In this document: piece after piece, positions 10,111 through 63,568 of the stretch
Layout of the letters: each line of letters starts with the position of its first letter
Position numbering within the stretch: position 1 is the stretch's first letter
Source: Octopus vulgaris
Lineage: Eukaryota
NCBI GenBank assembly: GCA_951406725.2
Contig: OX597836.1
Location: 9,176,001 to 9,240,000, forward strand
Length of the DNA stretch: 64,000 nt
Direction: 5' to 3'
Notes under the pieces: model-generated
Told to the model about the DNA's origin: nothing
Database searches by the model: none
What the model saw: only the letters and a program-made list of their open reading frames with translations
Translations under genes and position numbers: made by a program

Positions 10111-10639
10111 CACTACAAAATTAGAGAATGGAGAAACATACTTAAATCAGTAAAACATCAACTATCCGATGATACTCAATCCATACTTTAATACACCATT
10201 ACATATGAGTAAAGGCAATATATAAAATGAAATGAGATATACAGTAATAGTAAAAAGATAAAGAGATATAAGTAAAAAATTTCAAATATAATAGCATATT
10301 ATATTTGAAATTTTTATTATATCTCTTTATCTTTTACTATTACTGTATATCTCATTTCATTTTATATATTGCCTTTACTCATATGTAATGGTGTATTAAA
10401 GTATGGATTGAGTATCATCGGATAGTTGATGTTTTACTGATTTAAGTATGTTTCTCCATTCTCTAATTTTGTAGTATTAATTCTGTAATATTATTACCTT
10501 TACCCATATAATACAATAGATGAACTGATTGTTTGACAATTTTTAACATCTATGTATTAATTTTGTTGGGTACCTATCTAGCAGTATATTGGATATATAT
10601 TATCCCATGGTGGGTTGAATTTTCAACCCCTATCTCATT

Positions 10640-12272: not shown

Positions 12273-12491
12273 ATGGTTAGTGCGGAAAGCAAAAAAACAA
12301 AGCCCTCAACCGGTTCTTCCTTCTATTTATCAGTATGGTGCAGCTTCATCCTGTTACTTTTAAGGAGTGAAACTTGCTATGGTAATGTGAAGTCGTTTGA
12401 AGACTCTGGTTTCCAGAAACTGAATGGCCAACAACAAATTATCCAAACTCGAGGCATAAATTTTTTTGGCAAGACTTACAGTTTTGTAAAG
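12273..12491 (+). CDS. NIDO-domain single-pass membrane protein, coding exon 1 (signal peptide, start of NIDO region)
   Basis: MVSAESKK...FYLSVWCSFILLLLRSETCYG...GINFFGKTYSFVK|GTAAGT. FFGxxY motif typical of NIDO proteins; phase 0 joins VSRNGFVRF. Confidence 0.75.
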
Positions 12492-12839
12492 GTAAGTGCT
12501 TGATAAAACACACATATCTGTCATTCTCCTCTCTCGTTCTAATGAACTTAACTCACCATTTCCACCATCGTGTACCTCACTTCATCCCTAACCCTGTGCC
12601 TGTGCAAGCACATGGCCTAGTGGTTAGAGCAGTGGACTTGCGTTCGAGGGGATTGCGGATTCGAATCTCAGACTGGGCGAGACATTGTACTGTTGAGCAA
12701 AACGCTTCATTTCACATTGCTCCAGGCCACTCATCTGGCCAAAATGAGTAATCCTGTGATAGACCGGTGTCCTGTCCAGGAGTGGAATTTATACACCATG
12801 GAAACCAGCCCTTATGAATCGGCATGATTCAAGAAGATA

Positions 12840-12990
12840 ACCTTTACATTATTTACATTATTTACATTCGATGATTGTTTGTTGTTAACACGTTTCAGCT
12901 GATATACCCTCCAGCCTTCTTCAGGTGTCTTGGGGAAATTTTGAACCTGGGTTCTCATTCCTAAAGTATACTTCGATGTGATTATTATTG
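12840..12990 (-). mobile_element. Penelope-like pLTR fragment (same family as 30245-30372) with hammerhead lacking the cleavage triplet
   Basis: Minus strand GACAC-CTGAAGA-A-GGCTG..CAGCT-GAAAC-GTGTT; the GTT present in the 30282 copy is missing. Confidence 0.6.
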
Positions 12991-13189
12991 TTGTTCAGGT
13001 CACTGCTTGGAACAAAAGGGTTAAATCGTCCAGCTTAAACTTCCTGCATTCCCTGTTTCTCTGCCAGTCTATGTGATGCTGTCCTTGTTTTTTTCTCTAT
13101 GTTCAGACACTTCCAACCTGTATTGAACAATGAGTTTTTTTCACTGAAAAATTTACACAATACATATATATATTGTGTCATTAAAGTTT

Positions 13190-13505
13190 ATATCTCAAAA
13201 TCTCTCGTGGAAGCGTCATCCAACCAAAGTGCAAATATATGGGAAATTACCACCTGTGTCATCTCTTGTGAAAGGTAGAAGAGTCCAGTTTGCTGGACAT
13301 TGTTGTAGAGCTTAAAACGAGGTAATTTCTACTCTTCTCCTCTGGAAGCCACCTGCTCGCGATACCAGAGGTTGCACACTCTTCTACGCTGATGTAATCT
13401 CCAGGGATACAGGCATCCAGCAACAGGACCTCCATAATGCTATGATGGACCGTGAGGTCTGGCGTAACATAGTAAATTCCATTGTCTCGACCACGGTCAA
13501 ACGGC
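13190..13505 (+). mobile_element. RTE-clade LINE 3' end (second copy at 53497-53850)
   Basis: QNLSWKRHPTKVQIYGKLPPVSSLVKGRRVQFAGHCCRA...; near-identical to 53499-53837. Confidence 0.75.
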
Positions 13506-13849
13506 ATTATATCCAAAAGTATTCTTGGGTTGCATAATTGCTGCATCGTTTATGTTCTGTTGCTACCAATTTTCTCGGCCAGCTTCGTCTGGTTCCCATT
13601 CCGGTGGCACGTAAAAAGCTTCATCCGATCGTGGCCATTTGCCAGCCTCGTCTGGCACGTAAAAAGCACCCACTACACTCACGGAGTGGTTGGCGTTAGG
13701 AAGGGCATCCAGCTGTAGAAACACTGCCAGATCAGACTGGAGTCTGGTGCAGCCTTCTGGCTTCCCAGACCCCGGTCGAACAGTCCAATCCATGCAAGCA
13801 TGGAAAGTGGACGTTAAACAATGATGATGAGCATGTTTTCATCTTGTCG

Positions 13850-14140
13850 TCTCAATCTTTACATTCTTTCTCAAAGATTTGCTCATATTTTCTGTCGTAT
13901 GCTTCAAAGGTAGCTCCTTCGTTAGGGTTGTATTTGAACTCTGTTATGGAGTTCACAACATAGTCTGTCCAGAACAATTTTTCTGACTTTCCTGATGACT
14001 TCAGCAATTGCAACATTTCTTGCTCTAATATTACATGAAAGGAATTTAAAGGAATAACAACAGATCCTTTACTGATGTCAGTGCTCAATTCCAAAAGTAG
14101 AGTCAAATACTGTATAAAGTCAGTTTTGACTGGGACTTCC
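13850..14140 (-). mobile_element. Degenerate Ty3/Gypsy gag-like fragment
   Basis: DYVVNSITEFKYNPNEGATFEAYDRKYEQIFEKECKD resembles the N-termini of invertebrate Gypsy gag (FxYxPExGxTFxAWxxRYxDxF). Confidence 0.55.
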
Positions 14141-14271
14141 AAGTCTTACCAAACTGCTTATTGAACCAGTGAGGGAAGTAACCATTGGGCGAAAAACCAG
14201 AAGTACCAGTCAAAATTTATGTTATATTTGCATGTATATAAATATAAAGATATGTATTCTACTAAATATTA

Positions 14272-14302
<31 letters not shown>

Positions 14303-14726
14303 GAGGGAGAGAGAGAAATATAAACCTACATAACAATAATTTTGACCTTCACCTATTTTATGACAAAGCTCTGTTGTCTTTTATAGTTTTGGCATTAATG
14401 GCCATAAATTGCTCAGCTGAGCGTTCATTTTCTCAGTTGAAGAATATTAAAAAATCCCATCGTGACAATTATGCAGCAAAGCAGGCTGGACGTTTTATCC
14501 GTACTAAGTATAGAAGCAGATGAATTACTTAAGATTAATTTTGAGGATCCGATCAAAGACTTTGCAATTAAAAAAAGTGGGAGAAAACTTTTCAAATATA
14601 AATAAAGCGGAGCTATACAAACATAAACATTATTTTCTACCTCACTGTTAGTTTTGTTTCATTTTGAAAATATAAATTTACCTTATGGTTTATTATTGTT
14701 TTGATTTTAAATTAAATATATATATA

Positions 14727-15132
14727 GGCGCAGGAGTGGCTGTGTGGTAAGTAGCTTGCTAACCAACCACATGGTTCCGGGTTCAGTCCCACTGCATGGC
14801 ATCTTGGGCAAGTGTCTTCTGCTATAGCCCCGGGCCGACCAATGCCTTGTGAGTGGATTTGATAGACGGAAACTGAAAGAAGCCTGTCGTATATATGTAT
14901 ATATATATGTGTGTGTGTGTGTTTGTGTGTCTGTGTTTGTCCCCCTAGCATTGCTTGACAACCGATGCTGGTGTGTTTACGTCCCCGTCACTTAGCAGGT
15001 TCGGCAAAAGAGACCGATAGAATAAGTACTGGGCTTACAAAAGAATAAGTCCCGGGGTCGATTTGATCGACTAAAGGTGGTGCTCCAGCATGGCCACAGT
15101 CAAATGACTGAAACAAGTAAAAGAGTAAAAGA
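14727..15132 (+). mobile_element. Major bipartite tRNA/CORE-type SINE (octopus-type), full copy; >15 further copies or halves in the window
   Basis: GGCGCAGGAGTGGCTGTGTGGTAAG...GGTTCAGTCCC...CTTGGGCAAGT, central (TA/TG)n, 3' half ending GACTGAAACAAGTAAAAGAG. Others (approximate): 1-170(-), 16111(+), 18811(-), 24732(+), 26265(+), 31627(-), 35746(+), 49100(-), 52815(+), 54925(-), 55328(+), 58340(-), 61222(-). Confidence 0.85.
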
Positions 15133-15135
15133 GTA

Positions 15136-15176
<41 letters not shown>

Positions 15177-15178
<2 letters not shown>

Positions 15179-15527
15179 CGGAGATGTACTCGTATAGCAA
15201 GTAATTTGATCTGAGATCGTGTGCTGAAACGAAAACAATTGCAGCGTTGTTTATAAGCCATTTAAGAAACACACAAAAGCCGTTCGATTCACTTTAACAT
15301 TTAAGTTTAATTTGTCAAAATGTTTTTGTCGCTAAAATCTGCAACCTGTTCACTGACAAAAGTCCGTGCTGCATCACTTGAGATGCAGCACAGATTTTTG
15401 TCAGTGAACAGGTCGCAGATTTTAGCGACGAAAATATTTTGACAAATTGAACTTAAATGTTGAAGTGAATCGAACGGCTTTTGTGTGTTTCTTAAATGGC
15501 TTATAAACACCTTCCACGCTGCAATTG

Positions 15528-15529
<2 letters not shown>
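15177..15529 (-). mobile_element. Palindromic Penelope-like insertion in (TA)n carrying a G3:C8 hammerhead
   Basis: Arms 15234-15375 and 15382-15529 (loop ACTTGA); tail 15177-15233; TA repeats on both sides. Confidence 0.7.
15397..15446 (+). ncRNA. Minimal type-I hammerhead ribozyme, G3:C8 core variant
   Basis: TTTGTCA-GTGAACA-g-GTCGC-agatttta-GCGAC-GAAA-ATAT-T-T-TGACAAA: 7-bp stem I, 5-bp stem II, palindromic stem III AAUAUU. Confidence 0.7.
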
Positions 15530-15589
<60 letters not shown>

Positions 15590-15592
<3 letters not shown>

Positions 15593-15915
15593 TAAATAAA
15601 TGGAGTTGAACACAGGTGTTATTCAAATTCTTTTACTTTCGACATTAAGAAGATTGCATTGTTTTGCACCGTTTCTTCCTTTGGAATAGGGCAACTGTTG
15701 TCTTCAAAACATATGTTGAAAGTAAAAGAATTTGAATAGCATCTGCGTTCAACTCCATTTATTTACTTATACTACACAAATTACTGCACATTAACCCGGA
15801 ATTTCTACCTTTGATTAGGTCGCTACATCCTTGTTCTTGCGTGAATTTTGCTACCCTAGTAACTGTTTATTGAATTTTCCATGTTAACAGTAAACAAAGG
15901 ATAATTCATTCATCC

Positions 15916-15918
<3 letters not shown>
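15590..15918 (+). mobile_element. Inverted-repeat Penelope-like insertion in (TA)n with tail
   Basis: 15590-15646 is inverted to 15714-15768, with a ~67 bp spacer and ~150 bp tail; TA tracts on both flanks. Confidence 0.55.
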
Positions 15919-15963
<45 letters not shown>

Positions 15964-16934
15964 GGGCACCAAAATCTATCAAGTGCTTAGGTCCTCTATG
16001 GGTCTTAATCCAGCCCTGTATAGAAGCAGATGTGTTATGTGAGATTAATTTTGAGGATCTGATCAAAGACTTTGCAATTGAAAAAAGGTAAAAGAAAACT
16101 TTTCAAAAATAGGTGCAAGAGTGACTGTGTGGTAAGTAGGTTGCTTACCAACTACATCATTCCGGGTTCGTTCCCACTGCATGGCACCTTGGGCAAGTGT
16201 CTTCTACTATAGCCTCGAGCTGACCAAAGCTTTGTGAGTGGATTTAATAGACGGAAACTGAAAGAAGCTTGTCGTATATATGTATGTATATATATATGTA
16301 TGTGTGTGTGTGTATGTCTGTGTGTCTCCCTAGCATTGCTTGACAACCGATGCTGGTGTGTTTACATCCCCGTAACTTAGTGATTCAGCAAAAGAGACCG
16401 ATAGAATAAGTACTAGGCTTACAAAGAATAAGTCCTGGGGTCGATTCGCTCGATCGACTAAAGGCGGTGCTCCAGCATGGCTGCAGTCAAATGACTGAAA
16501 CCAGTAAAAGAGTAAAAGAGTAAAAGTGGAAGTATACAAAATTAAACATTATATTTTCCATGTTACGGAGAGTTTTGTCTCATTTTGAAAAATAAATATT
16601 TATTTCATGGTTTATTATTTCGTGGTCTATATTTTGAATTACATATATATATGGGTGCTTCAAAATCTCATAAGTGCTAAGGGTTGCTATGGGTTTTAAT
16701 CCAGCCCTGGTAGAGAGGACACATATAATAATAATAATAATGATTTCAAATTTTGGCAGAAGGCCAGCAATTTGGGGGTGAGAGGATAAGCCTTTCTATG
16801 GTGTGTATCCTTATCAGATAAAGATATCCACCATGGAAAGACAGATTGGATTAAATAGAACAGAAGGAGACACATGGGATGGAGAATCACAGTAGAGGAC
16901 ACAGGATGTGTGATGAAAGATTTTCAGACGAGGC

Positions 16935-17403
16935 ACAGTCAACCTAGGCAGAATTTGAACTCAGAATGTAGTGGCAGATGAAATACCTATTACTTAACTA
17001 CCCACAAGGGGCTAAACATAGAGGGGACAAACAAGGACAGACAAACGGATTACGTCGATTATATCGACTCCAGTGAGTAACTGGTACTTATTTAATCGAC
17101 CCCGAAAGGATGAAAGGCAAAGTCGACCTCGGCGGAATTTGAACTCAGAACATAACAGCAGACGAAATACCTATTTCTTTATTACTCACAAGGAGCTAAA
17201 CACAGAAAGGACAAACAAGGACAGACAAACGGATTAAGTCGATTATATCGACCCCAGTGCGTAACTGGTACTTATTTAATCGATCCCAAAAGGATGAAAG
17301 GCAAAGTTGACCTCGGCGATATTTGAACTCAGAACGTAACGGCAGACGAAATACGGCTACGCATTTCGCCCGGTGTGCTAACGTTTCTGCCAGCTCACCG
17401 CCC
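16935..17403 (-). mobile_element. Second SINE family (Meta-domain-like GCCTTTCATCCTTTCGGGGTCGAT) with internal tandem duplications
   Basis: Head GGCGGTGAGCTGGCAGAAACGTTAG, B-box GAGTTCAAATTCC, ~180 bp unit repeated. Others at ~1746(-), 25228(-), 30578(+), 42094(+), 50736(-), 60418(+), 62140(-). Confidence 0.75.
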
Positions 17404-17719
17404 TTCCTTCTCTCGATGTTGAGTGCTTAGTTGTAAACAAACACCATTCTTATACAAGTGGTGCTGTTTGCAATCTTCTGTGATGGCACATTTTCAGACA
17501 AAAAGGAAATATTGCTTTGCTTGGGAACAGATGAGGATTGGCGACAGGAAAAATATCTGGCCATAGAAAGTCAGCTTCAATTACTTTTGTCTGAGCCATA
17601 AGAAAGCGGACATTAAAAAGATCAAAACAATGTTGATGATGACGATGATAATGATGCATGCGTGTGTGTGTGTGTGTATGTGCACGTGCATGTATGTGTT
17701 TAATGACCAATTCCTTATG

Positions 17720-18800
17720 AGTACAATTTGTTAAATGGCTTCATTCCTTGTGAGCTTACGCATGTCCTCAGCAGTCACAGCCCATGTTTCACTGCCATGT
17801 AGCATGGCTGTTCGTACACATGCGTCATACAGTCTACCTTTTACTCTGAGCGAGAGGCCCTTTGTCGCCCAGCAGAGGTAAGAGCTCTCTGAACTTTGCC
17901 CAGGCTATTCTTATTCTAGCAGCTACACTTTCAGCGCACCCTCCCCCGCTACTGACTTGGTCACCTAGGTAATGGAAGCTATCAACAACTTCTAGTTTTT
18001 CTCCCTGGAATGTGACGGAAGTTGGTCTCTGCGCATTTTCAGTGTTTATTGCTCCCAAGCATCTGCCACATACAAAAACTATCTTCCTAGTTAGCCTTCC
18101 TTTGACATTGCTGCACCTCTTATGTGTCCATAGCTTATACTCTTATAGAGTTTCTACCTACGCCTTTTCTACAGAATGAGCAGGGCCATCTACCTGAAAG
18201 GATTTGTGGTTTGCCTGCCTTCCTACATATTAGAACTTTGGTTTTAGCTAGGTTGATTCTAAGGCCCTTCGATTCTAATCCTTGCTTCCACACCTGAAAC
18301 TTCTCCTCTAGTTCTGATAGTGACTCAGCAATTAGAGCAAGGTCATCAGCATAGAGGAGCTCCCAGAGGCATCCTGTCTTGAATTCCTCTGTTATTGCCT
18401 GGAGGACTATGATAAATAGGAGGGGGCTGAGGACTGAACCTTGGTGGACCCCTATGTCTACCCTGAATTCTCCAGTGTACTCATTGCCAACCCTCACCTT
18501 ACTTACAGCGTCCCTGTACATGGCTTGCACAGCTCTCACTAACCATTCATCTATCCCTAGTTTCCTCATTGACCACCAGATAAGGGATCGGGAGACCGTG
18601 TCGAAGGCTTTCTCCATGTCAACGAAAGCCAGGTACAGGGGCTTATCTTTGGCTAGGTATTTCTCCTGCAGCCGTCTTACCAGAAATATGGCATCCGTGG
18701 TGCTTTTCCCAGGCACGAAACCAAACTGCATCTCATCCAAGCTGACTCTCTTCCTAATCAGTTGGGCTATGACCCTCTCCGTAACCTTCATTACCTGATC
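17720..18800 (-). mobile_element. RTE/RTEX LINE reverse transcriptase fragment
   Basis: QFGFVPGKSTTDAIF, AFVDMEKAFD, GVHQGSVLSPLLF, LLYADDL, then Cys-rich insert WPCSFCRKGVG and FHYLGD. Confidence 0.92.
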
Positions 18801-19250
18801 CAAATACCACGGCCTTCTTTCAGTTTCCGTCTACCAAATCCACTCACAAGGCTTTGGTCGGCCCGAGGCTATAGTAGAAGACACTTGCCCAAAGTGCCAT
18901 GCAGTGGGACTGAATCCGGAACCATGTGGTTGGTAAGCAACCTACTTACCACACAGCCACTCCTACGCCTATAACTATTTAGTTTGTAACTATTTAGAAG
19001 TTCAATACCAGATTAAATCTTTAGCAATTAACATGGATACTAGGAAGAAATTTAAAACCAGCTGGTTGATTGTTTAGTTAAAATTATATTTTGTTATATA
19101 GTAAAACAATAGAAACACAACACACACACACACGTGCACACACACACACACACGTGCACACACTCACATACACTTACATACAAGCACTTACATTTTTTTT
19201 TCAAGGAGTGGTACCTGGTCAGGCTATTTGTAGTAGTAGTAGTAGTAGTG

Positions 19251-19287
<37 letters not shown>

Positions 19288-19658
19288 GCAGTTATATCTG
19301 TAATCTGTCTCTTTATTATTTGTGTCAATTGAAATATTTAATAGAAGGTGGGTCAGAACATGGATATATGTGTGTGTGTGTGTGTGTGTGTGTATGTATA
19401 TGTATATCATCATCATCATCATCATCATCGTTTAACGTCTGTTCTCCATGCTAGCATGGGTTGGACTGTTCAACCGGGGATCTGGGAGGCCAGAAGGCTG
19501 CACCAGGCTCCAGTCTTATCTGGCAATGTTTCTACAGCTGGATACCCTTCCTAACGCCGTGAGTGTAGTGGGTGCTTTTTACGTGCCACCTGCACAGGTG
19601 CCACGCGAGGCTGGCAACGGCCACGGTCAGATTGCTGTATTTTACGTGCCACCGGCAT

Positions 19659-19698
<40 letters not shown>

Positions 19699-20208
19699 TG
19701 CTAGATCAGACTGGAGCCTGGTGCAGCCTCCTGGCTTCCCAGACCCCAGTCAAATCGTCCAACCCATGCAAGCATGGAAAACAGACGTTAAACGATGATG
19801 ACGTATGCATGTATATGTATGTATAACAAGGATTTTTTAAATAATGTTGTCTGCTGCTATTCAGAATACAGAGGAGTTGTCACATATACATACACATATA
19901 TACATACATTCGTACATAAATGCATGCATACATACACACACACACACATGCATACATACATACATACATACATACATACATACATACATACATACATACA
20001 TGCATGCATTCATACATTTGCAGTTATAGCAATAATTAAAATACATGTGTTTGTCTAAATATGATATATGCATGTAAAAGCATAAGCACACATATACAAA
20101 CACATACCCACACACATGCACACATGCACACAAACACACACATGTGCACACACATACACACAAACCCACATGTATACACATACCTATATATGTGTATGTA
20201 CATATTTA

Positions 20209-20264
<56 letters not shown>

Positions 20265-20599
20265 TGAAGGCACATGGCTCATTGGTTAGAGCATCGAGGT
20301 TACGACCATGAGGTTGTGAGTTCGAATCCCGGACCGGGCTGCATGTTGTGTTCTTGAGCAAGACACTTTATTTCACGTTGCTCCAGTTCACTCAGCTGTG
20401 GAAATGGAGTTGCAACGTCACTGGTGTCAAGCTGTATCGGCCCCTTTGCCTTTCTCTTGGATAACATCGGAGGCATGGAGAGAGGGGAGGCTGGTATGCA
20501 TGAGTGACTGCTGGCCTTCCGTAAGCAACCTTGCCCAGACTTGTGCCTCGGATGCTAACTTTCTAGGTGCAATCCCATTTGTAGCGAAGACTTTGCCCA

Positions 20600-20820
20600 G
20601 CTGGTTGTAACGTCATAATTTCTTGTTGACGTCTTTTCTTGTCTTTCCATTTCTCCTCTCTCTCTCTCTCTGTCACTCCTTTGGGTTCCCTCTTTTACGG
20701 TACGTCGCCAATCTCCATGGTTGCTGGCAACTGCTTCCCAGTTGCTAATATTGATGTCGCAAGCCTTCATGTCCCTTTTGCAAACATCCTTATATCGTAA
20801 GAACAATTTTCCCACAGACC
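20600..20820 (-). mobile_element. RTE-BovB-like LINE C-terminal fragment
   Basis: LRYKDVCKRDMKACDINISNWEAVASNHGDWRRTVKEG. Confidence 0.7.
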
Positions 20821-20851
<31 letters not shown>

Positions 20852-22442
20852 TTTTAATTAATAAACACAATATATGTTTTTATGTGCTACTATTAGTTTC
20901 CTGTGCTGAGAGCATGCCAGACGGTATTTTTAACACATCTGATCTCCTAGCCCAATTATCAGACACTGCCCATATGGTTTAATGAACTAAAAATGAGGCA
21001 GCAGGATGAGAGAAAAGCAAGAAAGAAGTAAATGTAAAAGGTGGGAGGTTGAAAATCCAGAAAAAGAAAACAGAAAAATACAAAAGGGGAGAATTAGAGT
21101 TATTTGCCCTTAGACTTTAAAATATAAGCCTGAAAAGATAGTGGCTTAGAGTCTGTGATACAGTTGTTCAATCCAGAGAGAGGGGCACTTTCTAATTCAT
21201 CAACAGGAACTTAGTCATATGCTTACAACTGCCGAAAGTTTCAGATCTAGAATTCAGCTGTGTTAGACTTTTTAGATCTAAGAACTGTAGGGCAATGCTG
21301 AATTAGTTGAACAAATTAACCCTAGTACTTTATTTTTAAACTTGATACTTATTTTATCATTCTGTTTTTGCCAAACTGCTAAGTTAAGGAGACAAGCACA
21401 CCATCACCAGTTGTCATGTGATGTGGGACAAACACATGCATACATGTATAGACAATTTGATTCTTTCTATCTGTCAAATTCACCCACAATTCTTTGGTTG
21501 GCTCGAAGTTATACTAGAAGGCACTTGCTCAAGGTACCATAGAGTGGGACTGAACCTGAAACCATATGGTTGTGAAGGAAATTTCTTACCCCACAGCCAC
21601 TTCTACACTAAGTCCCATGTTGTGAACAAACATTAGTTGTTGACACATGACAGCTACTACCATCAATTATGTATTATAATCTGTTGGTTAAAGCCGCACC
21701 TATCTTTACAGACAACTAACAATGCATCTGCAATGTAGGGCATTGTACAAAGATTCTTTGAAAATACTTCAAAAACTTCCTGATCATAAAACTCAAGATC
21801 AGAATGTTGAAATATCTCATAGCCTTGTAAGCTTGTAATACAGGAAGAAACAAGACGTTATCTTGGTTCAGAAAACAAATCCTGTCCATAATACTGAAGC
21901 AATGAACGATATATATCAGCAATAACTTCACAGATGTTTATGAGCGCTTGTCCAATGTACCATGCATTAGGAGTGAACTTGAAACACATGTTCAGGAAAC
22001 AGACTTCTTAACTTCCTCATCATCGTTTAATATCTGCTCTCTCCATGCTGGCATAGGATGGACGGTTTGATGTGGAGCTGGCCGGCCATCTGGTAGCTGT
22101 CCAGACTCCAACTGTCTATTGTGGCATGGTTTCTACAGCTGGATGCCCTTCCTAATGCCAGTCACTTAGGAGAGTATACTGGGTGCCACTGGCACAGTTG
22201 CGTTTACGTGGCACCAGCAGGAGTGTATTTCCATGGCACCAGCATGGGTGCGTTAATGCAGCACTGGCCTAGTGCTTTTCATGTAGCACAAGCACCTGTA
22301 GAGGACAAGCCTCTACATGTGGAACGCCGCAATTTTACTTAACTTGACATATCTTATCAAGTGGTGGTGGTGTGTGTGTATATCTGTGTATATATATATA
22401 TATATACACATGTATATATATATATATATTCTTATATACACA

Positions 22443-22825
22443 CTAGCAGTATCGCCCGGCGTTGCTCAGGTTTGTAAGGGAAATAACTATAAAGCATTTT
22501 TAGAGAGTTATAGCCAAAAAATAGCAAAAAAATGGAAAAAAATGATGGTAAATTTTTTTTGGGATTTAAAAAAGGTAGAGTTGCGTCCCCTAGACAGTTT
22601 GTGGTTCGTATTCCTGATTCTCGACCCCATGTCGAATTTATCGATTTTTTCAGAACTGGGGGAACTTTTCAAAATTTTCGCTGCGTTAGTTTTGAATTAT
22701 GACATTGGGCTATGTGTGTGTCAAGTTTCATCAGAATCGGTTGAAAGCCGTGGTCAGGGTGAGGGTACAAGCAAACAGACACACAGAAACACGCACAGAC
22801 AAACTGCCGTTTATATAGAGAGAGA
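22443..22825 (-). mobile_element. Non-autonomous Helitron
   Basis: Minus strand starts TC after A and ends with hairpin CCTGAGCAACGCCGGG + CTAG before T; no TSD. Confidence 0.8.
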
Positions 22826-23685
22826 TGTATATATATATATATATATATAATATACATATATGTATATGTATGTGTATATGTATATATATGCGTGTGTATA
22901 TATATACACACATATATGTCTGCATGCATATATATATATACATATATATGGGTTGTCAAACCATCCATTCCCTGCCAGCGTAGAATATGGACATCAGACG
23001 ACGATGATGATATATGTATGTATGTATGTATACAATCACTTACTCACACACACACATACACACACTGTATCACAAAATAAACAACCTAACTACGACCAGC
23101 AGACCTGGGCATCTTGGGCAATGGTTAACATAATACGCATAAAGGTTTTAATTGATACACATGGCGGTGCCCCAGCATGGTCACAGCTTGTGAGCTGAAA
23201 CTAAATAAATAAATAAAAATAAAAATAAATGCTGTTATGCACAAACTTCTGCATCCTATGCACACACACACACACACACACACACTCGACAATTCTAAGT
23301 TAAGCCTTCATATTGCTTCCTCAGACAGAACCATGCCCTGTGTGTGCAAAAGACGAGGTTCGCGCCACTTGCAAGATTATTAGCAACAATTACTGTTTTC
23401 TCTGGCATTCCTCTCCGTTAACAATTATGCCATTATGAAAACCAGTTGCCATCGAGAGCCAAAATATCTAGCGCTCGGCCAATTTGGGTTACGAAAGTAT
23501 TTCGGCGAAAAGTTATATTTATTTGGTCATAATTTGAGATAATGATAACGAAGCACTTAACAGTTCCTCCTCTGTACTTCGATGCCTCTGTGTGTGTGTG
23601 TGTGTGTTTATTTATGTATGTGTTTATGTATGTATGCGTGTATGTATCTATGCATGGATATATACTCATAGATACATAAATACAC

Positions 23686-23732
<47 letters not shown>

Positions 23733-23998
23733 AATAAATATTCATATATACACATGTATATATATATATAAATATATATATATTCTTATATACACATGTA
23801 TATATATATAAATATATATATATTCTTATATACACATGTATATATATATAAATATATATATATTCTTATATACACATGTATATATATATAAATATATATA
23901 TATTCTTATATACACATGTATATATATATATAAATATATATATATTCTTATATACACATTATCAAAGTATCAAAGTATCAAAGTATATATATATATAA

Positions 23999-24073
<75 letters not shown>

Positions 24074-24187
24074 ATATACATATATGTATATGTGTGTGTG
24101 TATATGTATATATATGTGTGTATATATATATATACACATATATGTCTGTGTGCATATATATACATATATATTTATATATATATGTAT

Positions 24188-24357
<170 letters not shown>

Positions 24358-24514
24358 GTGCATGTGTATGTCAGTGACTTATTGTCTGTGTGTCGTGAAT
24401 ATAAATCCATGCCTGCCTGTCTGTTGAATATTATGTCTGTGTAACAGTGAAATATCTGTGTAAATGTATGAACGTGTCTATTAGTAAATATACACAAAAG
24501 TGTATATTTTTACT

Positions 24515-24552
<38 letters not shown>

Positions 24553-24915
24553 AATGCACAAGCACACACAGATTTCAGAAAATTCGTGTGTTCCTGTCTA
24601 AATGTAACTCATTGCAGACAGCCTTTGAGTACAGCATCATATTACTTAGTAAACAGTTTTTAAACAGTACAGAGAGAATTGAGTACAGAAGAAATGAGTA
24701 CAAGGAGAACTTTGTACTTGTTACTCAGCATAGGCGCAGGAGTGGCTGTGTGGTAAGTAGCTTGCTTACCAACCACATGGTTCCGGGTTCAGTCCCACTG
24801 TGTGGCATCTTGGGCAAGTGTCTTCTACTATAGCCTCAGGGGCCAACCAAAACCTTGTGAGTGGATTTATTAGATAGAAACTGAAAGAAGCCCATCATAT
24901 ATATGTATACTTATA

Positions 24916-24951
<36 letters not shown>

Positions 24952-25704
24952 TGTGTATGATTGTGTGTCTGTGTTTGTCCCCCACAACATCGCTTGACAA
25001 TCGATGCTGGTGTGTTTACGTCCCTGTAACTTAACAGTTCGGCAAAAGAGACCGATAGAATAAGTACTAGGCTTACGAAAAATAAGTCCTGGGGTCGATT
25101 TGCTCGACTAAAGGCGGTGCTCCAGCATGGGCACAGTCACATGACTGAAACAAGCAAAAGAGTAATTATATAAACCACTTTAAATATTATTTCAGCAAGT
25201 TGAAAGCAATTTTTTGGGGGCCATAAACCTATTTCTTTACTACCCACAAGGGGCTAGACACAGAGAGGTCAAACAAGGACAGACAAATGGATTAAGGCGA
25301 ATACATCAACCCCAGTGCATAACTGGTACTTATTTAATCGACCCCGAAAGGATGAAAGGCAAAGTCGACCTCGGCGGAATTTGAACTCAAAATGTAGCGG
25401 CAGACGAAATATTAGTAAGCATTATGCCCAGAGTGCTAACGTTTCTGCCAGCTCGCCGCCTTAACCATAAACCATTTACCATTTTTTGTGGTGCCCCCAC
25501 TTCCCTTGATACCCTAAGCACATGATTATTTTGCTCAATGGTTAATCCAGTCCTGTAGGACTGATTTACTTAAACAGAGACTCGAAGGAGCATTACTCAT
25601 ACCTGTTTCAAATTTTGGCACAAGGCCAGCAAGTTGGTGGGGGAGTCAATTACATCAACCTCAGTGTTCAACTGTTACTTATTTTGTTGACCCCTAAAGG
25701 CACA

Positions 25705-26078
25705 TAAAAAGCACCATCCAAACGTGGCCGATGCCAGCGCCGCCTCGACTGGCTTCAGTGCCGGTGGCACATAAAAAGCACCATCCGAATGTGGCTGATA
25801 CCAGCGCCGCCTTGGCTGGCTTCCGTGCCGGTGGCACGTTATAAGCACCTACCGATCGTGGCCAATGCCGGACTCCCCTGGCACCTATGCAGGTGGCACA
25901 TAAAAAGCACCCACTACATTTGCGGAGTGGTTGGCGTTAGGAAGGGCATCCAGCTGTAGAAACACTGCCAGATCAGACTGGAGCCTGGTGCAGCCCCTGG
26001 CTTCCCAGACCCCGGTCGAACCGTCCAACCCGTGCTAGCACAGAAAACGGACGTTATCCGATGATGATGATGATGATG
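25705..26078 (+). mobile_element. RTE-tail-like repeat with tandem GGTGGCACGTAAAAAGCACC units and (GAT)n tail
   Basis: GGCGTTAGGAAGGGCATCCAGCTGTAGAA...GGACGTTA..CGATGATGATG. Other copies at ~4735, 13590, 27170, 37120, 37450, 46800(-), 56580. Confidence 0.6.
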
Positions 26079-27551
26079 ACTAGAGGGGATAGAAGACTTG
26101 AACTCAGAACATAAAGACGGACGATATGCCGTTAAGCACTCTGCCCAGTATGCTAACGATTCTGCCTGCTCACCACCTTCAATAATAATAATCCTTTTAT
26201 TAGCAGAAAGTTATACACAAGTACGTATCCTGCAAGTCAGAGAATGCCAACAACATTAACATAGGTATAGGAGTGGCTGTGTGGTAAGTAGCTTGCTTAC
26301 GAACCACATGGTTCCGGGTTCAGTCCCACTGCGTGGCACCTTGGGCAAGTGTCTTCTACTATAGCCTCGGGCCGACCAAAGCCTTGTGAGTGGATTTAGT
26401 AGACGGAAACTGAAAGAAGCCCATCGTATATATGTATATATATATATGTGTGTATGTGTGTGTCTGTGTTTGTCCCCCCAACATCGCTTGACAACCAATG
26501 CTGGGGTGTTTACATCCCCATAACATAGCAGTTCAGCAAAAGAGACCGATAGAATAAGTGCTAGGCTTCCAAAGAATAAGTCCCGGGGTCGATTTGCTCG
26601 ACTAAAAGCAGTGCTCCAGCATGGCCACAAAGAGTAGAAATAGTAGCCTCTCCCAGACCATTCATAAATACATGACATCATACCTAAAAAAGATATGTCT
26701 TTGTTATCCTAGAACAGGAAATAGCTACTACATATCTGATGAGCAAGAGAGAGAAGAATGCATCTTGGCGCCTTCATTGTGCTAGAAAATGTCCATTTTT
26801 TGCCATATCATCATGAAAGAAATTAGCTACATCATCAGAGGTTGTCCAAAAATATCTCAAAGTAGCTACTTCTTCATGAGACCCGACATTGTCACAAAAA
26901 CTAATTATAATGCCATATGCAGGAAGGATTGTCCTTGTGGTTATATTACAAATACACAAGAACCCTAACCCTAACCCGACACCTCTGATGCCAATGGCGA
27001 TTTTACTGAAGAAATCTACTCTTTAGTATTTCAAAACATTTTTATGTAATTTTGGTGAATATATCTGTAAAAATGAGATGTCAGTGTTATTTTCATTTTT
27101 ACATAATTTAGACAACAATATACATTCACCACACCCTGTGTATATATAATATATATATATATATGAGCTGGTGGCACGTTAAAAGCACCAACCGATCGTG
27201 GCCGCTGCCAGACTCCCCTGGCACCTATGCCGGTGGCACGTAAAAAGCACCCACTACACTCGCGGAGTGGTTGGCGTTAGGAAGGGCATCCAGCTGTAGA
27301 AACACTGCCAGATTAGACTGGAGCCTGGTGCAGCCTCCTGGCTTCCCAGACCCCGGTCGAACCGTCCAACCCGTGCTAGCATGGAAAACGGACGTTAAAC
27401 GATGATGATGAGCCTCACAGAGGCAATGTCTAGTGACCGAGACCATTGGCGATATGCTGTACTTGAGAAGACCCATCAAACCAAGTGAAATTGTAGTCAT
27501 GGTTAATACTGGTGCCACGTAACTGGCACTTGTGTAGGTGGCACGTAAAGG

Positions 27552-27830
27552 GCACCTTTTGAATGTTGGGCCTCACAATGGCAAAGTGGCCGAGTTCCTT
27601 TCAAGCTTTTGGCCTCGTAGGGGCAAAGAGGTTGAGTTCTTTTTGAGCGTTGGGCCACATGGAGGCAAGGTGGCTGAGTTCCTTTCAAGCTTTTGGCCTC
27701 GTGGAGGTAACGTGGCTGAGTCTCTTTCAAGCTTTTGGCCTCGTGGGGGCAAAGAAGTTGAGTTCTTTTTTAGCGTTGGGCCACATGGAGGCAAGGTGGC
27801 TGAGTTCCTTTTGAGTGTTGGGCCTCACAG
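27552..27830 (+). repeat. ~39 bp minisatellite, ~7 copies
   Basis: GAGTTCCTTTCAAGCTTTTGGCCTCGT.. alternates with GAGTTCTTTTTGAGCGTTGGGCCACATGGAGGCAAGGTGGCT. Confidence 0.8.
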
Positions 27831-28558
27831 AGGCAATGACCGAGATCTTTGCCATTATGTCATGCTTGGGAAGAAGACCCATCAAGCCGAGCAAAATCGC
27901 AGTCAAAGCCGACCAAAGCCTTGTGAGTGGATTTGGTAGACAGAAACTGAAAGAAGCCCGTCGTACATATGTATGTGTGTGTGTTTGTGTGTCTGTCTGC
28001 AATGAGTTATATTTAGAGGGGAACACACGAATTTTCTGAAATCTGTGTGTGCTTGTGCATTTATGTGTGTGTGTGTGTATGTGTCTGTATGTATGTTACG
28101 TTTGTGTGTATGAGTAAAAATATATACTTTTGTGTATATTTACTAATAGACACGTTCCCCCCAACATCGCTTGACAACCAATGCTGGGGTGTTTACGTCC
28201 CCGTAACTTAGCAGTTCGGCAAATGAGTCCAATAGAATAAGTACTAGGCTTACAAAGAATAAATCCTGGGGTCGATTTGCTCGACTAAAGGCGGTGCTCC
28301 AGCATGGCCACAGTCAAATGACTGAAACAAGTAAAAGAGAGAGAGTAATCTATAGCATATCAAACTTAATATGCCCCACTTTAATCTCACATGTAGGCAT
28401 CTGTTGTCCCACCTGCCACCCCCACTCTGTGGTTTGCTGAAAACCCTCCTACCCTCTCTACCCTACTACTCACTCCATCTCCTTCTCCACCATCACCCTC
28501 CCCCATGTCACACTACTTAATCACCAAAAGAAAATTTTCATTAATCAGCCACACCTCT

Positions 28559-28618
<60 letters not shown>

Positions 28619-28812
28619 TGTTTCTCTATATCGTTCCCTCTCACTTTCTTTTTGTTCCCCTCCCACTCTTTTCTCTCTCTCCCTCTTTCCCTCTTTCTTT
28701 CTTTCTCTCTGTCTGTCTCTGTCACTCATTCTCTTTCTCTCACTTCGCTTTGTCTCTCTGTCTCTTTTCTCATTCTCTGTCTCCTTCTCCCTACTCTCTC
28801 TCTCTCTCCCTC

Positions 28813-28916
<104 letters not shown>

Positions 28917-29025
28917 CATGTGTGGGTGTATATTAAATGTTGAGAAAATAAAATACAGAGTAATTTTCTGCCACTCCTAACACAGCTTTGACACTGATCT
29001 AGAGATTCTATGGCCTTAGATTGCA

Positions 29026-29067
<42 letters not shown>

Positions 29068-29081
29068 CTTCAAGGAAGTGT

Positions 29082-29162
<81 letters not shown>

Positions 29163-29165
29163 GTA

Positions 29166-29231
<66 letters not shown>

Positions 29232-29287
29232 CGTACATACATATATATATATATATAATGTATGTATATATATATACATATACATTC

Positions 29288-29319
<32 letters not shown>

Positions 29320-29876
29320 GAATGTTTTTATATATAATGAACATGAAATACAGGAAGGGACGAACACAGAACACAGACAAATCATTCGAAGCCTTCAATC
29401 TTCAGTCAGACACCGAATCATCATAGCAAATTTCGGCTGTTCAATTCTGATATTTGCTCCAACTCGGCCAGCCCCAAGAAAAAAACTAAGCTGTAAGCAT
29501 TAGATTTCTTGGTAGAAGACAGGAATGTGAACGCACAAGACGGATGTGAATACAAGAGACGAAAACGAAATTGAAAACAGTAATGAATAAACAAAAAATA
29601 TATATAACGGTGGTTGTCATACGACATATATATATACACATACACACACACACACATATTCTCTTTTATTTTCTCTTTTTTTCTCTTTTACTTGTTTCAG
29701 TCATTTGACTGCGGCCATGCTGGAGCACCGCCTTTAGTCGAGCAAATCAACACCGGGACTTCTTCTTTGTAAGCCTAGGACTTATTCTATCGGTCTCTTT
29801 CACCAAACTGCTAAGTTACTGGGGCGTAAACACATACACACAAACACAAACACACACATACACATATACATATATA

Positions 29877-29922
<46 letters not shown>

Positions 29923-30144
29923 CTTGGTCCGTTGCAGGTGCGCTGCAAGATGCAGGAGGAAAGAGTGAGAGAAAGTTGTGAAAGAGTCAGCAGAAGTTCA
30001 CCATTACCTTCTGCCGGAGCCACATGGAACTTAGGTGTTTCGCTCATAAACACACACATCTCCCGGTCTGAGATTCGAACCCGCGACCACTCGACCGCAA
30101 GTCAGCTGCTCTAACCACTAAGCCACGTGCCTCCAAAATAATAA

Positions 30145-30185
<41 letters not shown>

Positions 30186-30281
30186 GTAATAATAATAATA
30201 GTAATAATAATAATAATAACAACAACAACAACAACAACAACAACCTTAGGAATGAGAACCCAGGTTTGAAATTTTTCCCAA

Positions 30282-30327
30282 GACACCTGATGAAGGCTGG
30301 AGGGTATATCAGCCGAAACGTTGTGTT
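30282..30327 (+). ncRNA. Minimal type-I hammerhead ribozyme (canonical core) in Penelope-like pLTR 30245-30372
   Basis: GACAC-CTGATGA-a-GGCTG-gagggtatat-CAGCC-GAAA-CG-T-T-GTGTT; palindromic stem III ACGU; GUU site. Confidence 0.8.
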
Positions 30328-31130
30328 AACAACAAACAAGATGAGGACAAATATCCATCAAACGTAAATAATGCAGTCAAAATGTTGCTAAGCAGTTTAC
30401 CTGGCATGCTAACAATTCTGCCAGCTCACTGCCTTTCCATGAATATATTACCTTGTTTGGATGCAAGCGAGGATTGGTGAGAGGAAGAGCTCCTAGGTGT
30501 AGAAGAATTTGTCTCACTGAGTTCCATTTGACCCATGCAAGCATGGGAAAATGGACGTTGTAGAATGATGATGATGAAGGCGGCGATATGGCAGAAACGT
30601 TAGCATGCCGGGCGAAATGCGTAGCCGTATTTCATCTGCCGTTACATTCTGAGTTCAAATTCCGCCGAGATCGACTTTGCCTTTCATCCTTTCGGGGTCG
30701 ATAAATTAAGTACCAGTTACGCACTGGGGTCGATGTAATCGACTTAATCCGTTTGTCTGTTCTTGTTTGTCCTCTGTGTGTTTAGCCGCTTGTGGGTAGT
30801 AAAGAAATAGGTACTTCGTCAACCGTTATGTTCTAAGTTCAAACTCCGCCTAGGTCGGCTTCGCCTTTCATCCTTTTGGGGGTCGATTAAATAAGTACTA
30901 GTTACGTCTGCCGTTACGTTCTGAGTTCAAATTCCACCGAGGTTGACTTTGCCTTTCATCCTTTCGGGGTCGATAAAATAAGTACCAGTTACGCACTGGG
31001 GTCAATGTAATCGACTCAATCCGTTTGTCTGTCCTTGTTTGTCCTCTGTGTTTAGCCCATTGTGGGTAGTAAAGAAATAAGAATGATGATGATAATGATG
31101 TTTTTTTTTTTCGTCTTTTGCATTTTCTAG

Positions 31131-39725: not shown

Positions 39726-39817
39726 TGTTGTGTCTGGGAAGAGTCATTCTCTTTTAGTGCCTTATTATTTAACACACTCACTGGTAAAATTTCCACTTAT
39801 TTCTTATTCTTATTTTC

Positions 39818-39854
39818 CTAAAATTTTCGTTGCGACTTGCAACCTTTTCAATAG
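39818..39854 (-). ncRNA. Minimal hammerhead-like motif, U3:A8 core variant
   Basis: Minus strand CTA-TTGAAAA-g-GTTGC-aagtc-GCAAC-GAAA-AT-T-T-TAG; stem I only 3 bp, at a truncation junction. Confidence 0.5.
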
Positions 39855-39935
39855 TCTTGACTATTTCAATAGTAATTAACTGATCCTCCTGTATTTTCTT
39901 TTATCCAAAGCCAGGAACTTTCCAGCATCCCCTCA

Positions 39936-43640: not shown

Positions 43641-43689
43641 ATGCATGATATATCCAAAATATTCTATGCTCAGAATATTACATAATCAC

Positions 43690-44335
43690 TGAAATATTAT
43701 GGTTTGTCCAGAATATTATGGTCTGTCAGGAACATTATGGTATGTCCAAAATATGTTGTGTCCAGAATATTGGGGTATGTCCAGAATATTAGGGTATGTC
43801 CAGGATGTTGGGTTATGTCCAGAATATTGGGTTATGTCCAGAATATTGGAGTATGTCCAGAATATTGGGTTATGTCCAGAATATTGGGGTATGTCCAGAA
43901 TATTGGGGTATGTCCAGAATATTGGGGTATGTCCAGAATATTGGGGTATGTCCAGAATATTGTGGTATGTTCAGAATATTGTGTTACGTCCAGAATATTG
44001 GGGTATGTCCAGATTATTGGGGTATGTCCAGAATACTGGGTTATGTCCAGAATATTGAGGTATGTCTAGAATGTCCAGAATATTGGGGTATGTCCAGAAT
44101 ATTGGGTTATGTCCAGAATATTGGGTTATGTCCAGAATATTGGGGTGTGTCCAGAATATTGGGGTATGTCCAGAATATTGGGGTGTGTCCAGAATATTGG
44201 GAGGGGTCCAGGATATTGGGGTATATCATGAATGTGATATAATCACTAGAATACTATGGTTTGCCAGGAATGTTATGGTATGTCCAGAATATTATGATAC
44301 AGCCAGAATATTGTGATATGTCCAGAATATTGTGG
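43690..44335 (+). repeat. 19-bp minisatellite (TGTCCAGAATATTGGGGTA)n, ~30 copies, degenerate at the edges
   Basis: Direct reading. Confidence 0.95.
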
Positions 44336-44413
44336 TTTATAATGTAGAGATATGTATTTAGCTTTTTCCGAAAGATAAGTATGGAATATGTTTTCTTCTG
44401 TTGACTGTTCTAG

Positions 44414-54344: not shown

Positions 54345-54739
54345 CTAGCTGGCCCCGTGCTGTCAAAAATGACGGCTAATTGTAGCATTTTATGCATAAA
54401 TAAGGTACATAATAATCACAGATACAAACATTCACATATTTCCCTTGTACACACTTATACACACACACATATACTCACACAGAGTTGAAACGCTGTTTGC
54501 TTTTTCTTTTCAGCGTAGAATGTTCACCACCCACCTCCATTGCACACACACACACACACAAACATTCACATACCTCCCTTTTACATACACACACATATAC
54601 GCACGCAGAGTTTAAACGCTGTTTGATTTTTTTTTCACCATAGAACTTCCATCACCCCACTACCAAGTTTGCCATCACCCCTTCCTTTCTCATTTGTATG
54701 TTGTGACGGAGAAAAACACAAGAGTTTTATTATAGTAGA
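54345..54739 (-). mobile_element. Non-autonomous Helitron next to the POLD2 exon 2 acceptor
   Basis: Minus strand A|TCTACTATAATAAAAC start; end CCGTCATTTTTGACAGCACGGGGCCAGCTAG. The same 3' end occurs at ~43190-43228(+). Confidence 0.7.
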
Positions 54740-54758
54740 TTCTATTTATTTTTTTCAG

Positions 54759-54880
54759 GTAAAGATGTGAAAATAAACAAACTATATGAACTGGAAGCTG
54801 ACAAGAAATGTGTCATCATTGGAACTCTGTTTAAGTTTATGCAGCTTCAGCCAAGCATCGTGAAAGAAATTAGCGAAGAA
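54759..54880 (+). CDS. POLD2: POLD2 coding exon 2
   Basis: tttcag|KDVKINKLYELEADKKCVIIGTLFKFMQLQPSIVKEISEE|gtgagt. Confidence 0.95.
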
Positions 54881-55848
54881 GTGAGTGCCTTTCAATGATT
54901 CCCATTTATCTACTCTCTCTCTCTTTTTACTTGTTTCAGTCATTTGACTGTGGCCATGCTGGAGCACCACCTTTAGTCAAGCAAATCGACCCCCAACACT
55001 TATTCTTTGTAAGCCTAGTATTTATTCTATCGGTCTCTTTTGTCGAACTGCTAAGTTACGGGGACTTAAACACACCAGCATCGGTTGTCAAGCGATGTTG
55101 GGAGGACAAACATATACACACACACACACACACACATATATATATCAAACCCACTCACAAGGTTTTGGTCAGCCCAGCGCTATAGTAGGAGACACTTGTC
55201 CAAGGTGCCACACATCAGGACTGAACCCAGAATCATACGGTTGGGAAGCAATCTTCTTAGCACATAACCATGCCTGCACCCATTTCCTGAGTTCAATTCC
55301 TAGCACCATGTTGTGTCCTTGAGCCATAGGCGTAGGAGTGGCTATGTGGTAAGTAGCTTGCTTACCAACCACATGGTTCCAGGTTCAGTCCCACTGCGTG
55401 GCACCTTGGGCAAGTATCTTCTACTATAGCATCAGGCTGACCAAAGCCTTGTTAGTGGATTTGGTAGATGGAAACTGAAAGAAGCCCGTCATGTATATAT
55501 ATATGTGTGTGGGCGTGTATGTTTGTGTATCTGTGTTTGTCCCCCCAACATCGCTTGGCAACTGATGCTGGTGTGTTTATGTCTCCGTAACTTACCAGTT
55601 CAGCAAAAGAGACTGATAGAATAAGTACTAGGCTTAAAAATAATAAGTCCTGGGGTCGATTTTCTCGACTAAAGGCAGTGCTCCAGCATGGCCACAGTCA
55701 AATGACTGAAACAAGTAAAAGAGTATAAGTTAACAACAGAACACAACACGAATACCACAACAACCCATTTTCTATCTATTTATCTTCCTTATCCTTCCCT
55801 GACTTCTACAAATAGTCAACATGAAACTGCCCCTTCTATGTTTTCCAG

Positions 55849-61480: not shown

Positions 61481-63356
61481 CGACAGGCTTCTTTCAGTTT
61501 CCGTCTACCAAATCCACTCACAAGGCTTTGGTCGGCCCAAGGCTATAGTAGAAGACACTTGCCCAAGGTGCCATGCAGTGGGACTGAACCTGGAACCATG
61601 TGGTTGGTTAGCAAGCTACTTACCACACAGCCACTCCTGCGCCTTCTTTCAGTTTCTGGCTACTATATCTATTCACAGGGCTTTAGTTAGCCCAGGCCTA
61701 TAATTAAAGACTCTTGTCTTAAGTACTGCAGTGGATGTGTGTGGCTTAGTGTGTTAGGTTATTTGTCTCACAGTCATAAGGTCATGGTTTCAATTCTTGG
61801 TGGCACATTGTGTCTCTTGAGTGAGACCCTTTATTCCACATTGCTCCTCTCCACTCACCTGGCAATAACGAGTTGTACCTGTAAATCAAAGGGCCTATCT
61901 CATCTCATTACGTAATCTGCTTAAGAACAATGTTAAGGGTACGCATGTCTGTGTTGTGCTCAGTCACTTGAATGTTAATTTCACGAGCAGGTTGTTCTGT
62001 TGATTGGATCAACCAAAACTTCCATCGTCGTAATTGATGGAGAGCCAGAACCTTGACCCCCATGGCCATGCACAAAAATGGATCTCTGAAACGCCAAAAA
62101 TGTGAATCCGGATGCTGAATTAACATTTCTTCTCCCCTCTTATTTCTTCATTGCCCACAAGGGGATAAACAAGGACAGACAAGGGGATTAAGTTGATTAC
62201 ATTGATCCCAGTGCGTAACTGGTACTTAATTTATCGACCCTGAAAGGATGAAAGGCAAAGTCGACCTCGGCGGAATTTGAACTCAGAATGTAGCGACAGA
62301 CAAAATTCCGCTAAGCATTTCGCCAGGTGTGCTAACGATTCTGCCAGCTCACTGCCTTTTCTCCCCTCTTAGTGAATCAACAGCCCCTTGCCTCATCAGC
62401 TGATGTTGAACCATCAAACCCATGGGGGGGGAAATGGATGTTAAATTATGATGATGGTAATTTCTTTACTAAAAAAACTTTTCATTAAGGAATAGAAATT
62501 ACTTTAAGAATTTGTCCAGTTCTTGATTTACACTCTGTAAAGTGGTTGGCTTTAGGAAAGGCATCCAGCTGTAGAAACCATACCAAAGCAGACCTCGCTG
62601 GTGCTGGTACCGTGCACAGAGCACCCAGTCCACTCTGTAAAGTGGTTGGCTTTAGGAAGGGCATCCAGGTGTATAAACCATGCCAAAGTAAACAGTGGAG
62701 CTTGACTCAGTCCTCCAGTTTACCCTTCTCCTGTCCAACTGTCCAACCCATGCCAGCATGGAAAACAGATATTAAATGATGATGGTGATATTGATTTTCG
62801 GATGTTCAATATGCCCATAATAAATACACACACTGGTTCTATTTCCTTTTTTTATTTCAATTTGTCATTTTGTTAACAATTTAACCAATCAATTAATTGA
62901 TTGTTTGATTGATCGCTTGGTTATGCAATGAATCAGCTGTGTTTGTCAGGGCCCTTTCATTGCCATTTGTGATCTCGTGTATAATATACCCTCTCTACTC
63001 CAGGTCTTTGAGATGAGGCCACAAATAGCTATGAAAGGAGTTTAACAAACTTAGCTGCTTTATTGACAGACAGAATAATCAGTCAAGCAAGCGATTGGTT
63101 AAATGATTAACCACTTGACTAATAAAAATAAAGAAGTGAAATAAAACCAGTGTGTGTGTGTTATTGGTATAATGACCCTCCCAAGATAGAACAAAATCAT
63201 GTTTTAACACAGATGTTTACTTCAAGAATCTTGTAACCAAATACATAAGAACAAAGATTTAAAAGCTATTCATTAATTATGTAAATACATCTTTCCCAGT
63301 TGGTGTTCAGTCAAGATATTTTAACATATGCAATGAACTTTGAATTTATCTGGCAG

Positions 63357-63552
63357 ATACGTGGCTATTTTGTCTGGTTTGGAAATTGGCAGCAAGGAAG
63401 AGAAACAGTTTGAAATGCAGATGGCATTGGATCTAATAACAGGGAAGTTGGGCAGTATATACCAACAGGAAGATAGTTCACAGATTGTACGTGTGATTGT
63501 GGCAGGTAATTCTCTCAGCAAGGACACTCAAGATAAGGATTCAATCAGCAAA
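63357..63552 (+). CDS. POLD2: POLD2 coding exon 5 (gene continues beyond window)
   Basis: ggcag|YVAILSGLEIGS...ALDLITGKLG...IVRVIVAGNSLSKDTQDKDSISK|gtaagt. Confidence 0.95.
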
Positions 63553-63568
63553 GTAAGTGTTAAATATA

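Follow-up and report, generated by a model that had tools for sequence, protein, structure and literature searches.

The window, by which we mean the whole 64-kb stretch of Octopus vulgaris DNA that was analysed, contains a NIDO-domain gene whose ATG exon (12273-12491), with GT at its end, connects in phase with an exon beginning at 31131; the Pfam NIDO match has an E value of 5.8e-14. The intron between these exons carries a fold-back with arms at 15248-15375 and 15382-15509 (128 nt, 95% complementary), and its right arm holds a hammerhead motif. The sequence-only reading of this DNA had placed that motif in sense orientation in intron 1 of the gene; the orientation and the intronic position were borne out, and the intron is the first provided that the gene lacks an untranslated exon further upstream. 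The motif is the pseudo-LTR (pLTR) hammerhead of a young family of Penelope-like retroelements (PLEs), here called family A. The parts of the insertion and its surroundings are as follows.

12492-31130, +: host intron of the NIDO-domain gene that contains the insertion (context, outside the element; from exon joining and Pfam)
15134-15175, no strand: (TA)n target microsatellite, left flank (from the sequence)
15176-15375, -: left arm, an inverted pLTR copy with a tail extension (from the fold-back and copy comparison)
15311-15360, -: decayed hammerhead copy in the left arm, with G3:C8 kept
15382-15529, +: right arm, a 5'-truncated pLTR without the tail extension, which starts where fuller copies have their candidate splice acceptor (from the fold-back and copy comparison)
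15397-15446, +: type I minimal hammerhead motif with a G3:C8 core, family A pLTR (from sequence, fold, genomic matches and relatives)
15397-15403 with 15440-15446, +: stem I, 7 bp (from the sequence)
15404-15410, +: core strand GUGAACA, in which G3 (15404) and C8 (15409) replace C3 and G8 (from the sequence; family-wide)
15411, +: extra G after the core (from the sequence)
15412-15416 with 15425-15429, +: stem II, 5 bp, with an 8-nt loop (from the sequence)
15430-15432, +: GAA (from the sequence)
15433-15438, +: palindrome AAUAUU, stem III, the predicted dimer interface (from the sequence, the dimer model of PMC4209133 and folding)
15439, +: U17 of the UUU site, with the predicted cut 3' of this position (from the sequence and the dimer model of PMC4209133)
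15496-15529, +: remnant of an ORF start, with the ATG at 15496, that runs on into the ORF in tandem copies (L165, L166)
15530-15589, no strand: (TA)n target microsatellite, right flank (from the sequence)

Elsewhere in the window are two further fold-back, MITE-like repeats (10193-10393 and 15587-15771), exons matching Pfam DNA polymerase delta small-subunit domains (54707-54895 and 63337-63633, both on the + strand) that are likely part of a POLD2-type gene, and a short-period tandem repeat at 43650-44350 that translates in every frame to a Cys/Tyr-rich repeat peptide and is probably a minisatellite.

Direct reading of the sequence confirmed the layout that had been claimed for the motif at 15397-15446. 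Stems I and II both form in the fold predicted for it (z = -3.25; 0 of 200 shuffles were as stable), the three-way junction with these stems is present, and the stem sequences vary among relatives while their pairing holds. U4, G5, A6, A9, G12, A13, A14, A15.1:U16.1 and H17 are all canonical in the right-arm motif; what departs from the literal definition of a hammerhead is the absence of C3 plus G8 (CUGANGA). An 18-nt motif probe matched the window twice, against 0.02 matches expected. Stem III is self-complementary, so a dimer is possible, and the computed gain from forming it is marginal. The same core had also been claimed for the mirrored arm. GUGAACA is indeed kept there, but G12 has changed to A, the stem III palindrome is broken and stem II contains a U·G wobble, so the left-arm motif is a decayed copy. 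Rfam scans left the right-arm motif unmatched, yet a canonical motif at window position 30287 was likewise missed, and because this control failed too the null result is uninformative. The window sequence at 30281-30326 (+) is a canonical CUGAUGA minimal hammerhead motif that belongs to another repeat family and is unmatched by Rfam.

The window arm is a repeat, for which a first look returned 1,266 candidates, the top copies being 97-98% identical. A consensus of genomic copies was one of the checks proposed for the unusual core, and the copies have G3:C8 as the family state: G3 was present in 115 and C8 in 111 of 118 fetched arms, a set not picked for any core variant, and each canonical core position was kept in at least 112 of the 118. 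Loop II falls into several subfamily types across these arms. An exact genome pattern with G3 and C8 gave 5,583 matches and its control none. When the flanks were fixed (n = 4,665 matches), 4,335 copies had G3:C8, 231 had G3 with another base at position 8 and 99 had another base at position 3; 93% of family A copies are thus paired at 3:8, and forward and reverse matches are about equal in number. A genome-wide search with the same pattern found 0 copies of C3:G8 in family A, and there were none among the 99 position-3 variants either. The supposition that such a family escapes CUGANGA searches was correct, in that this pattern with the same stem II gave 0 copies genome-wide. In contigs of four sequencing runs labelled as four organisms, no alternative letter reached 4% in the 5' stem I, core or 5' stem II strands; loop II was variable at five places, C11.1 (a CpG) varied at about 6% in one run, and stem I showed one wobble-compatible change. 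A candidate second high-copy G3:C8 family with a different stem II (383 matches against 199 in the control) was rejected, the excess in the first 100 listed being mostly an unrelated repeat without an evident stem II.

Longer copies of family A have, upstream of the pLTR, an ORF with reverse transcriptase (RT) motifs, a CxxxCxxC-type Cys-rich linker and a GIY-YIG domain. One reading frame runs uninterrupted over 1,025 codons; a YVDD-type RT motif was read from the translation, GIY-YIG scored above the Pfam cut-off and Pfam RT was unmatched. Many copies have near-identical endonuclease domains, and on this account the family is young. The pLTR is where PLEs carry their hammerheads (Cervera and de la Pena 2014, PMC4209133). 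PLEs are described as inserting into (TA)n and as forming inverted pLTR pairs in which one side alone has a tail (PMC8557442), and family A resembles the Neptune-clade EN+ PLEs of that paper in its C-terminal GIY-YIG, its Cys-rich linker, its (TA)n targets and its inverted pLTR pairs with tail; a Neptune-clade assignment is suggested to the extent of the domain layout. Both pLTR orientations occur within 800 nt at 15 of 30 loci. At L013, L024, L026, L209 and L218 the two arms of one inverted insertion come from different loop II subfamilies, which suggests copying from two different pLTRs or RNAs. What looked like a tandem of the element at C2 turned out to be a duplication of host sequence.

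In tandem copies L165 and L166 a candidate branch point and acceptor come first, followed by the motif, the ATG and the ORF, which places the motif in the 5' UTR part of the pLTR. A branch-point-like CTAAC and a YAG acceptor are present in the pLTR and the motif starts about 15 nt behind the candidate 3' splice site; the PLE hammerhead of D. virilis also starts at an intron end (PMC4209133). No splice joint was seen in contigs of the sequencing runs, where the repeat stretch was skipped. This arrangement, together with a short frame that is open across the motif in copies with a 9-nt loop, would suit an explanation in which G3 and C8 are set by an overlapping frame, a promoter element or splice signals and their pairing is coincidental. 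We regard that explanation as very improbable: in the youngest subfamily with an intact ORF the 8-nt loop shifts the short frame into a stop and the long ORF starts downstream of the motif, and constraint from coding or splice signals leaves the covariation in sister families, described below, unexplained.

The family A motif shares with the minimal type I hammerheads of PMC4209133 its pLTR position, the extra nucleotide after position 9, G10.1:C11.1, GAAA and a palindromic stem III. It differs in the extra nucleotide, which is G in family A and H in the published consensus, and at the 3:8 pair: Figure S3 of that paper (56 motifs by its legend) has only C3 or U3 and the covariation named in the accessible text is U3-A8, whereas family A has G:C. 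The descriptors of that survey fixed the core boxes, which put G3 out of its reach. Natural U3-A8 core variants are described in section 8 of Perreault 2011 (PMC3088659) and for the S. mansoni Cercyon families in PMC4209133. They too are compensated changes at 3:8, and one family in our window, family C, is of this kind. U3:A8 keeps a pyrimidine at position 3 and is reached by transitions, whereas G3:C8 would need two transversions and an unpaired intermediate. Lunse et al. are said to have reported many PLE hammerhead variants in 2017.

That the C3G/G8C double mutant rescues activity in engineered hammerheads had been taken as established. Rescue is in print, but it is only partial (PMC11167929, PMC8495972, PMC9901934). 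In the Anolis PLE hammerhead the double change partly rescues cleavage, and that PLE hammerhead needed the element's protein to cut (PMC11167929); in a pairwise scan C3G/G8C was the sole rescuing double mutant in its region (PMC9901934). All of these, and that of PMC3884650, are laboratory mutants, whereas here the same swap characterises a high-copy family whose ORF is intact. We did not find a natural G3:C8 in the accessible parts of the literature on hammerhead and PLE variants, including PMC3884650, PMC10085705, PMC11014351, PMC6765202, PMC13725137, PMC6962438 and bioRxiv 10.64898/2026.07.22.740005.

Relatives of family A vary at the same pair. Stretches beside ORFs were scanned without constraint on positions 3, 7, 8 and 9; the scan covered 11 regions from 10 elements, among them four metagenomic relatives (L103-L106). 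Five regions had exactly one match and six had none, and all five matches were Watson-Crick at 3:8: G:C in A, C:G in L103 and L104, and U:A in L105 and L106. Family B was missed by the scan because its stem III is not palindromic; parsed by hand, its motif has C3:G8 and a C at position 9, a core found in 95 of the first 100 listed of 2,905 genomic matches. The family B protein is 57% identical to that of A and is its sister in a quick tree (SH-aLRT 99) that holds unnamed relatives and leaves family C out. Family C, found by the same scan at about 39815-39855 (-) of the window, has an ORF start 74% identical to that of B over 27 residues, and U3:A8 in 92 of the first 100 listed of 1,507 genomic matches (loci L258-L287). 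The motifs were compared by structure parsing, and the counts from listings of the first 100 were made by eye. Taken together, the seven motifs (five from the scan, with B and C) have G:C once, C:G three times and U:A three times. When position 8 was permuted over the seven, 36 of 5,040 arrangements kept every pair, a figure that is not a true probability because these motifs are relatives of one another and G:C occurs in a single lineage; other variable core columns were complementary in at most two of the seven. Complementarity in all seven motifs, with three pair types, argues from comparison of sequences for a Watson-Crick 3:8 pair, and it favours a compensated swap over decay. The sequence-only reading's idea of a naturally evolved swap is supported by this covariation and by the family-wide state of G3:C8; what that reading missed is that the motif lies in the pLTR of a Penelope-like element.

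Several relatives were recorded in passing. L093 (G000:C19) holds family B, which is very young, as tandem copies of about 4.6 kb period; the ORF has about 1,310 codons and contains an insert rich in Asn. C9 occurs in 99 of the first 100 family B copies listed, where stem I is weak, and L105 also has C9. The metagenomic relative L103 (4960-5030) has C3:G8 with U15.1:A16.1 in a palindromic stem III, and L109 (2350-2400) appears by eye to hold a degenerate hammerhead at the same position, its core changed and stem II almost lacking. No relative was found in viral contigs, and the best matches of a foreign protein query were places already known for A and B, at loci only partly examined.

A minority of family A copies, about 2%, carry an unpaired G3·G8. 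They occur on all loop II backgrounds (L208-L227, for example), are sometimes present in both arms of an insertion and share no obvious private lineage by eye. Among the first 100 listed of the 231 position-8 variants the base was G in 45, U in 40 and A in 15, and a single host duplication accounts for three of those with A; at a context-matched site the equivalent transversion was seen in 12 of the first 100 listed of 118 (Fisher p 3e-7), and G3·G8 stands about sevenfold above this control. Its presence on all backgrounds, and sometimes in both arms, implies that pair-broken RNA seems able to transpose. The G3·G8 copies may come from a mutational hotspot, from a recombining lineage or from a relic of the path between C3:G8 and G3:C8.

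These copies bear on a reading that we consider doubtful while taking it seriously, namely that the motif descends from a genuine hammerhead and has lost the need to cut, its fold persisting through inertia or for another role such as RT binding, dimerisation of the RNA or translation, and that G3:C8 arose by drift through unpaired intermediates. Relaxed constraint would fit the sevenfold enrichment, the core departures in relatives (C9 in B and L105; U15.1:A16.1 in L103) and the six of 11 regions without a match, and it is in keeping with the low activity of PLE hammerheads (PMC4209133), with hammerhead mutants that did not impair insertion in vitro, where the PLE hammerhead is dispensable (PMC11167929), and with the absence of hammerheads from Naiads (PMC8557442). 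A relaxed core, however, should not give Watson-Crick pairs at 3:8 in seven of seven motifs with three pair types, nor should it keep U4, G5, A6, G12, A13 and A14 together with pairing in the great majority of copies. We consider it reasonably probable that G3:C8 in family A is a compensated swap by which a weak ribozyme is retained, one predicted to cleave element RNA as a dimer; the window copy is predicted to be inert.

For this compensated swap the following mechanism is proposed. Stem III would form by pairing of the AAUAUU palindromes, either within a transcript that has two pLTRs or between two RNAs of the element. G3 would pair with C8 and so hold the ribose of position 8 as general acid, G12 would act as the base, and cleavage would take place 3' of U17, probably at a slow rate and with the element's protein probably assisting. 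The general-acid role of the position-8 ribose is part of the hammerhead mechanism. A role for the 2'-OH in hammerhead catalysis is also stated in PMC8495972. By analogy with PLE hammerheads (PMC4209133), cutting after U17 through a palindrome dimer is most likely. Folding of a single pLTR gave stems I and II with probability 0.68-1.0, and G3 was predicted to pair with U17 with probability 0.67, lengthening stem I. The active dimer was computed at -25.6 kcal/mol against 2 x -12.5 for two monomers, and a mispaired dimer, at -30.9, was more stable. With so little gained by the active dimer and with G3 predicted to pair with U17, these models suggest that any activity of family A is probably low or assisted by protein.

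The window copy consists of an inverted pair of pLTRs, truncated at the 5' end and inserted in (TA)n, and any transcript through it would fold into a long hairpin: the fold-back is predicted at -236.8 kcal/mol, and the native stems have a probability of 0.0 within it. The copy in the window is thus predicted to be inert and buried, and because the fold-back is predicted to sequester it, its intronic position probably means little; the NIDO-intron location is probably incidental. That it lies in sense in the NIDO intron could be taken to indicate a host-exapted ribozyme that regulates the gene, an idea to which we give almost no credence given the predicted loss of the native stems, the balance of forward and reverse matches across the genome and the fact that this copy is one of thousands that are nearly identical (98% to others).

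The G3:C8 motif reveals neither a new ribozyme class nor a host function. It is likely, from the sequence comparisons, that family A holds a natural counterpart of a ribozyme variant that is otherwise a laboratory product. A bolder proposition, which we advance only tentatively, is that this is the first natural purine-3 hammerhead: an active G3:C8 ribozyme in a mobile family, this being one of three sisters within a single genome that hold the catalytic tertiary pair as G:C, C:G and U:A respectively; a persistent G3·G8 minority would mark the valley that was crossed. If this is true, the natural covariation series would be complete at the sole Watson-Crick pair inside the hammerhead core, and searches in which the core is fixed would be shown to miss high-copy families, with more than 5,500 matches in the octopus genome alone. 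The three sister families would then provide a natural panel for the question of whether PLE hammerheads are selected to cut or only to fold.
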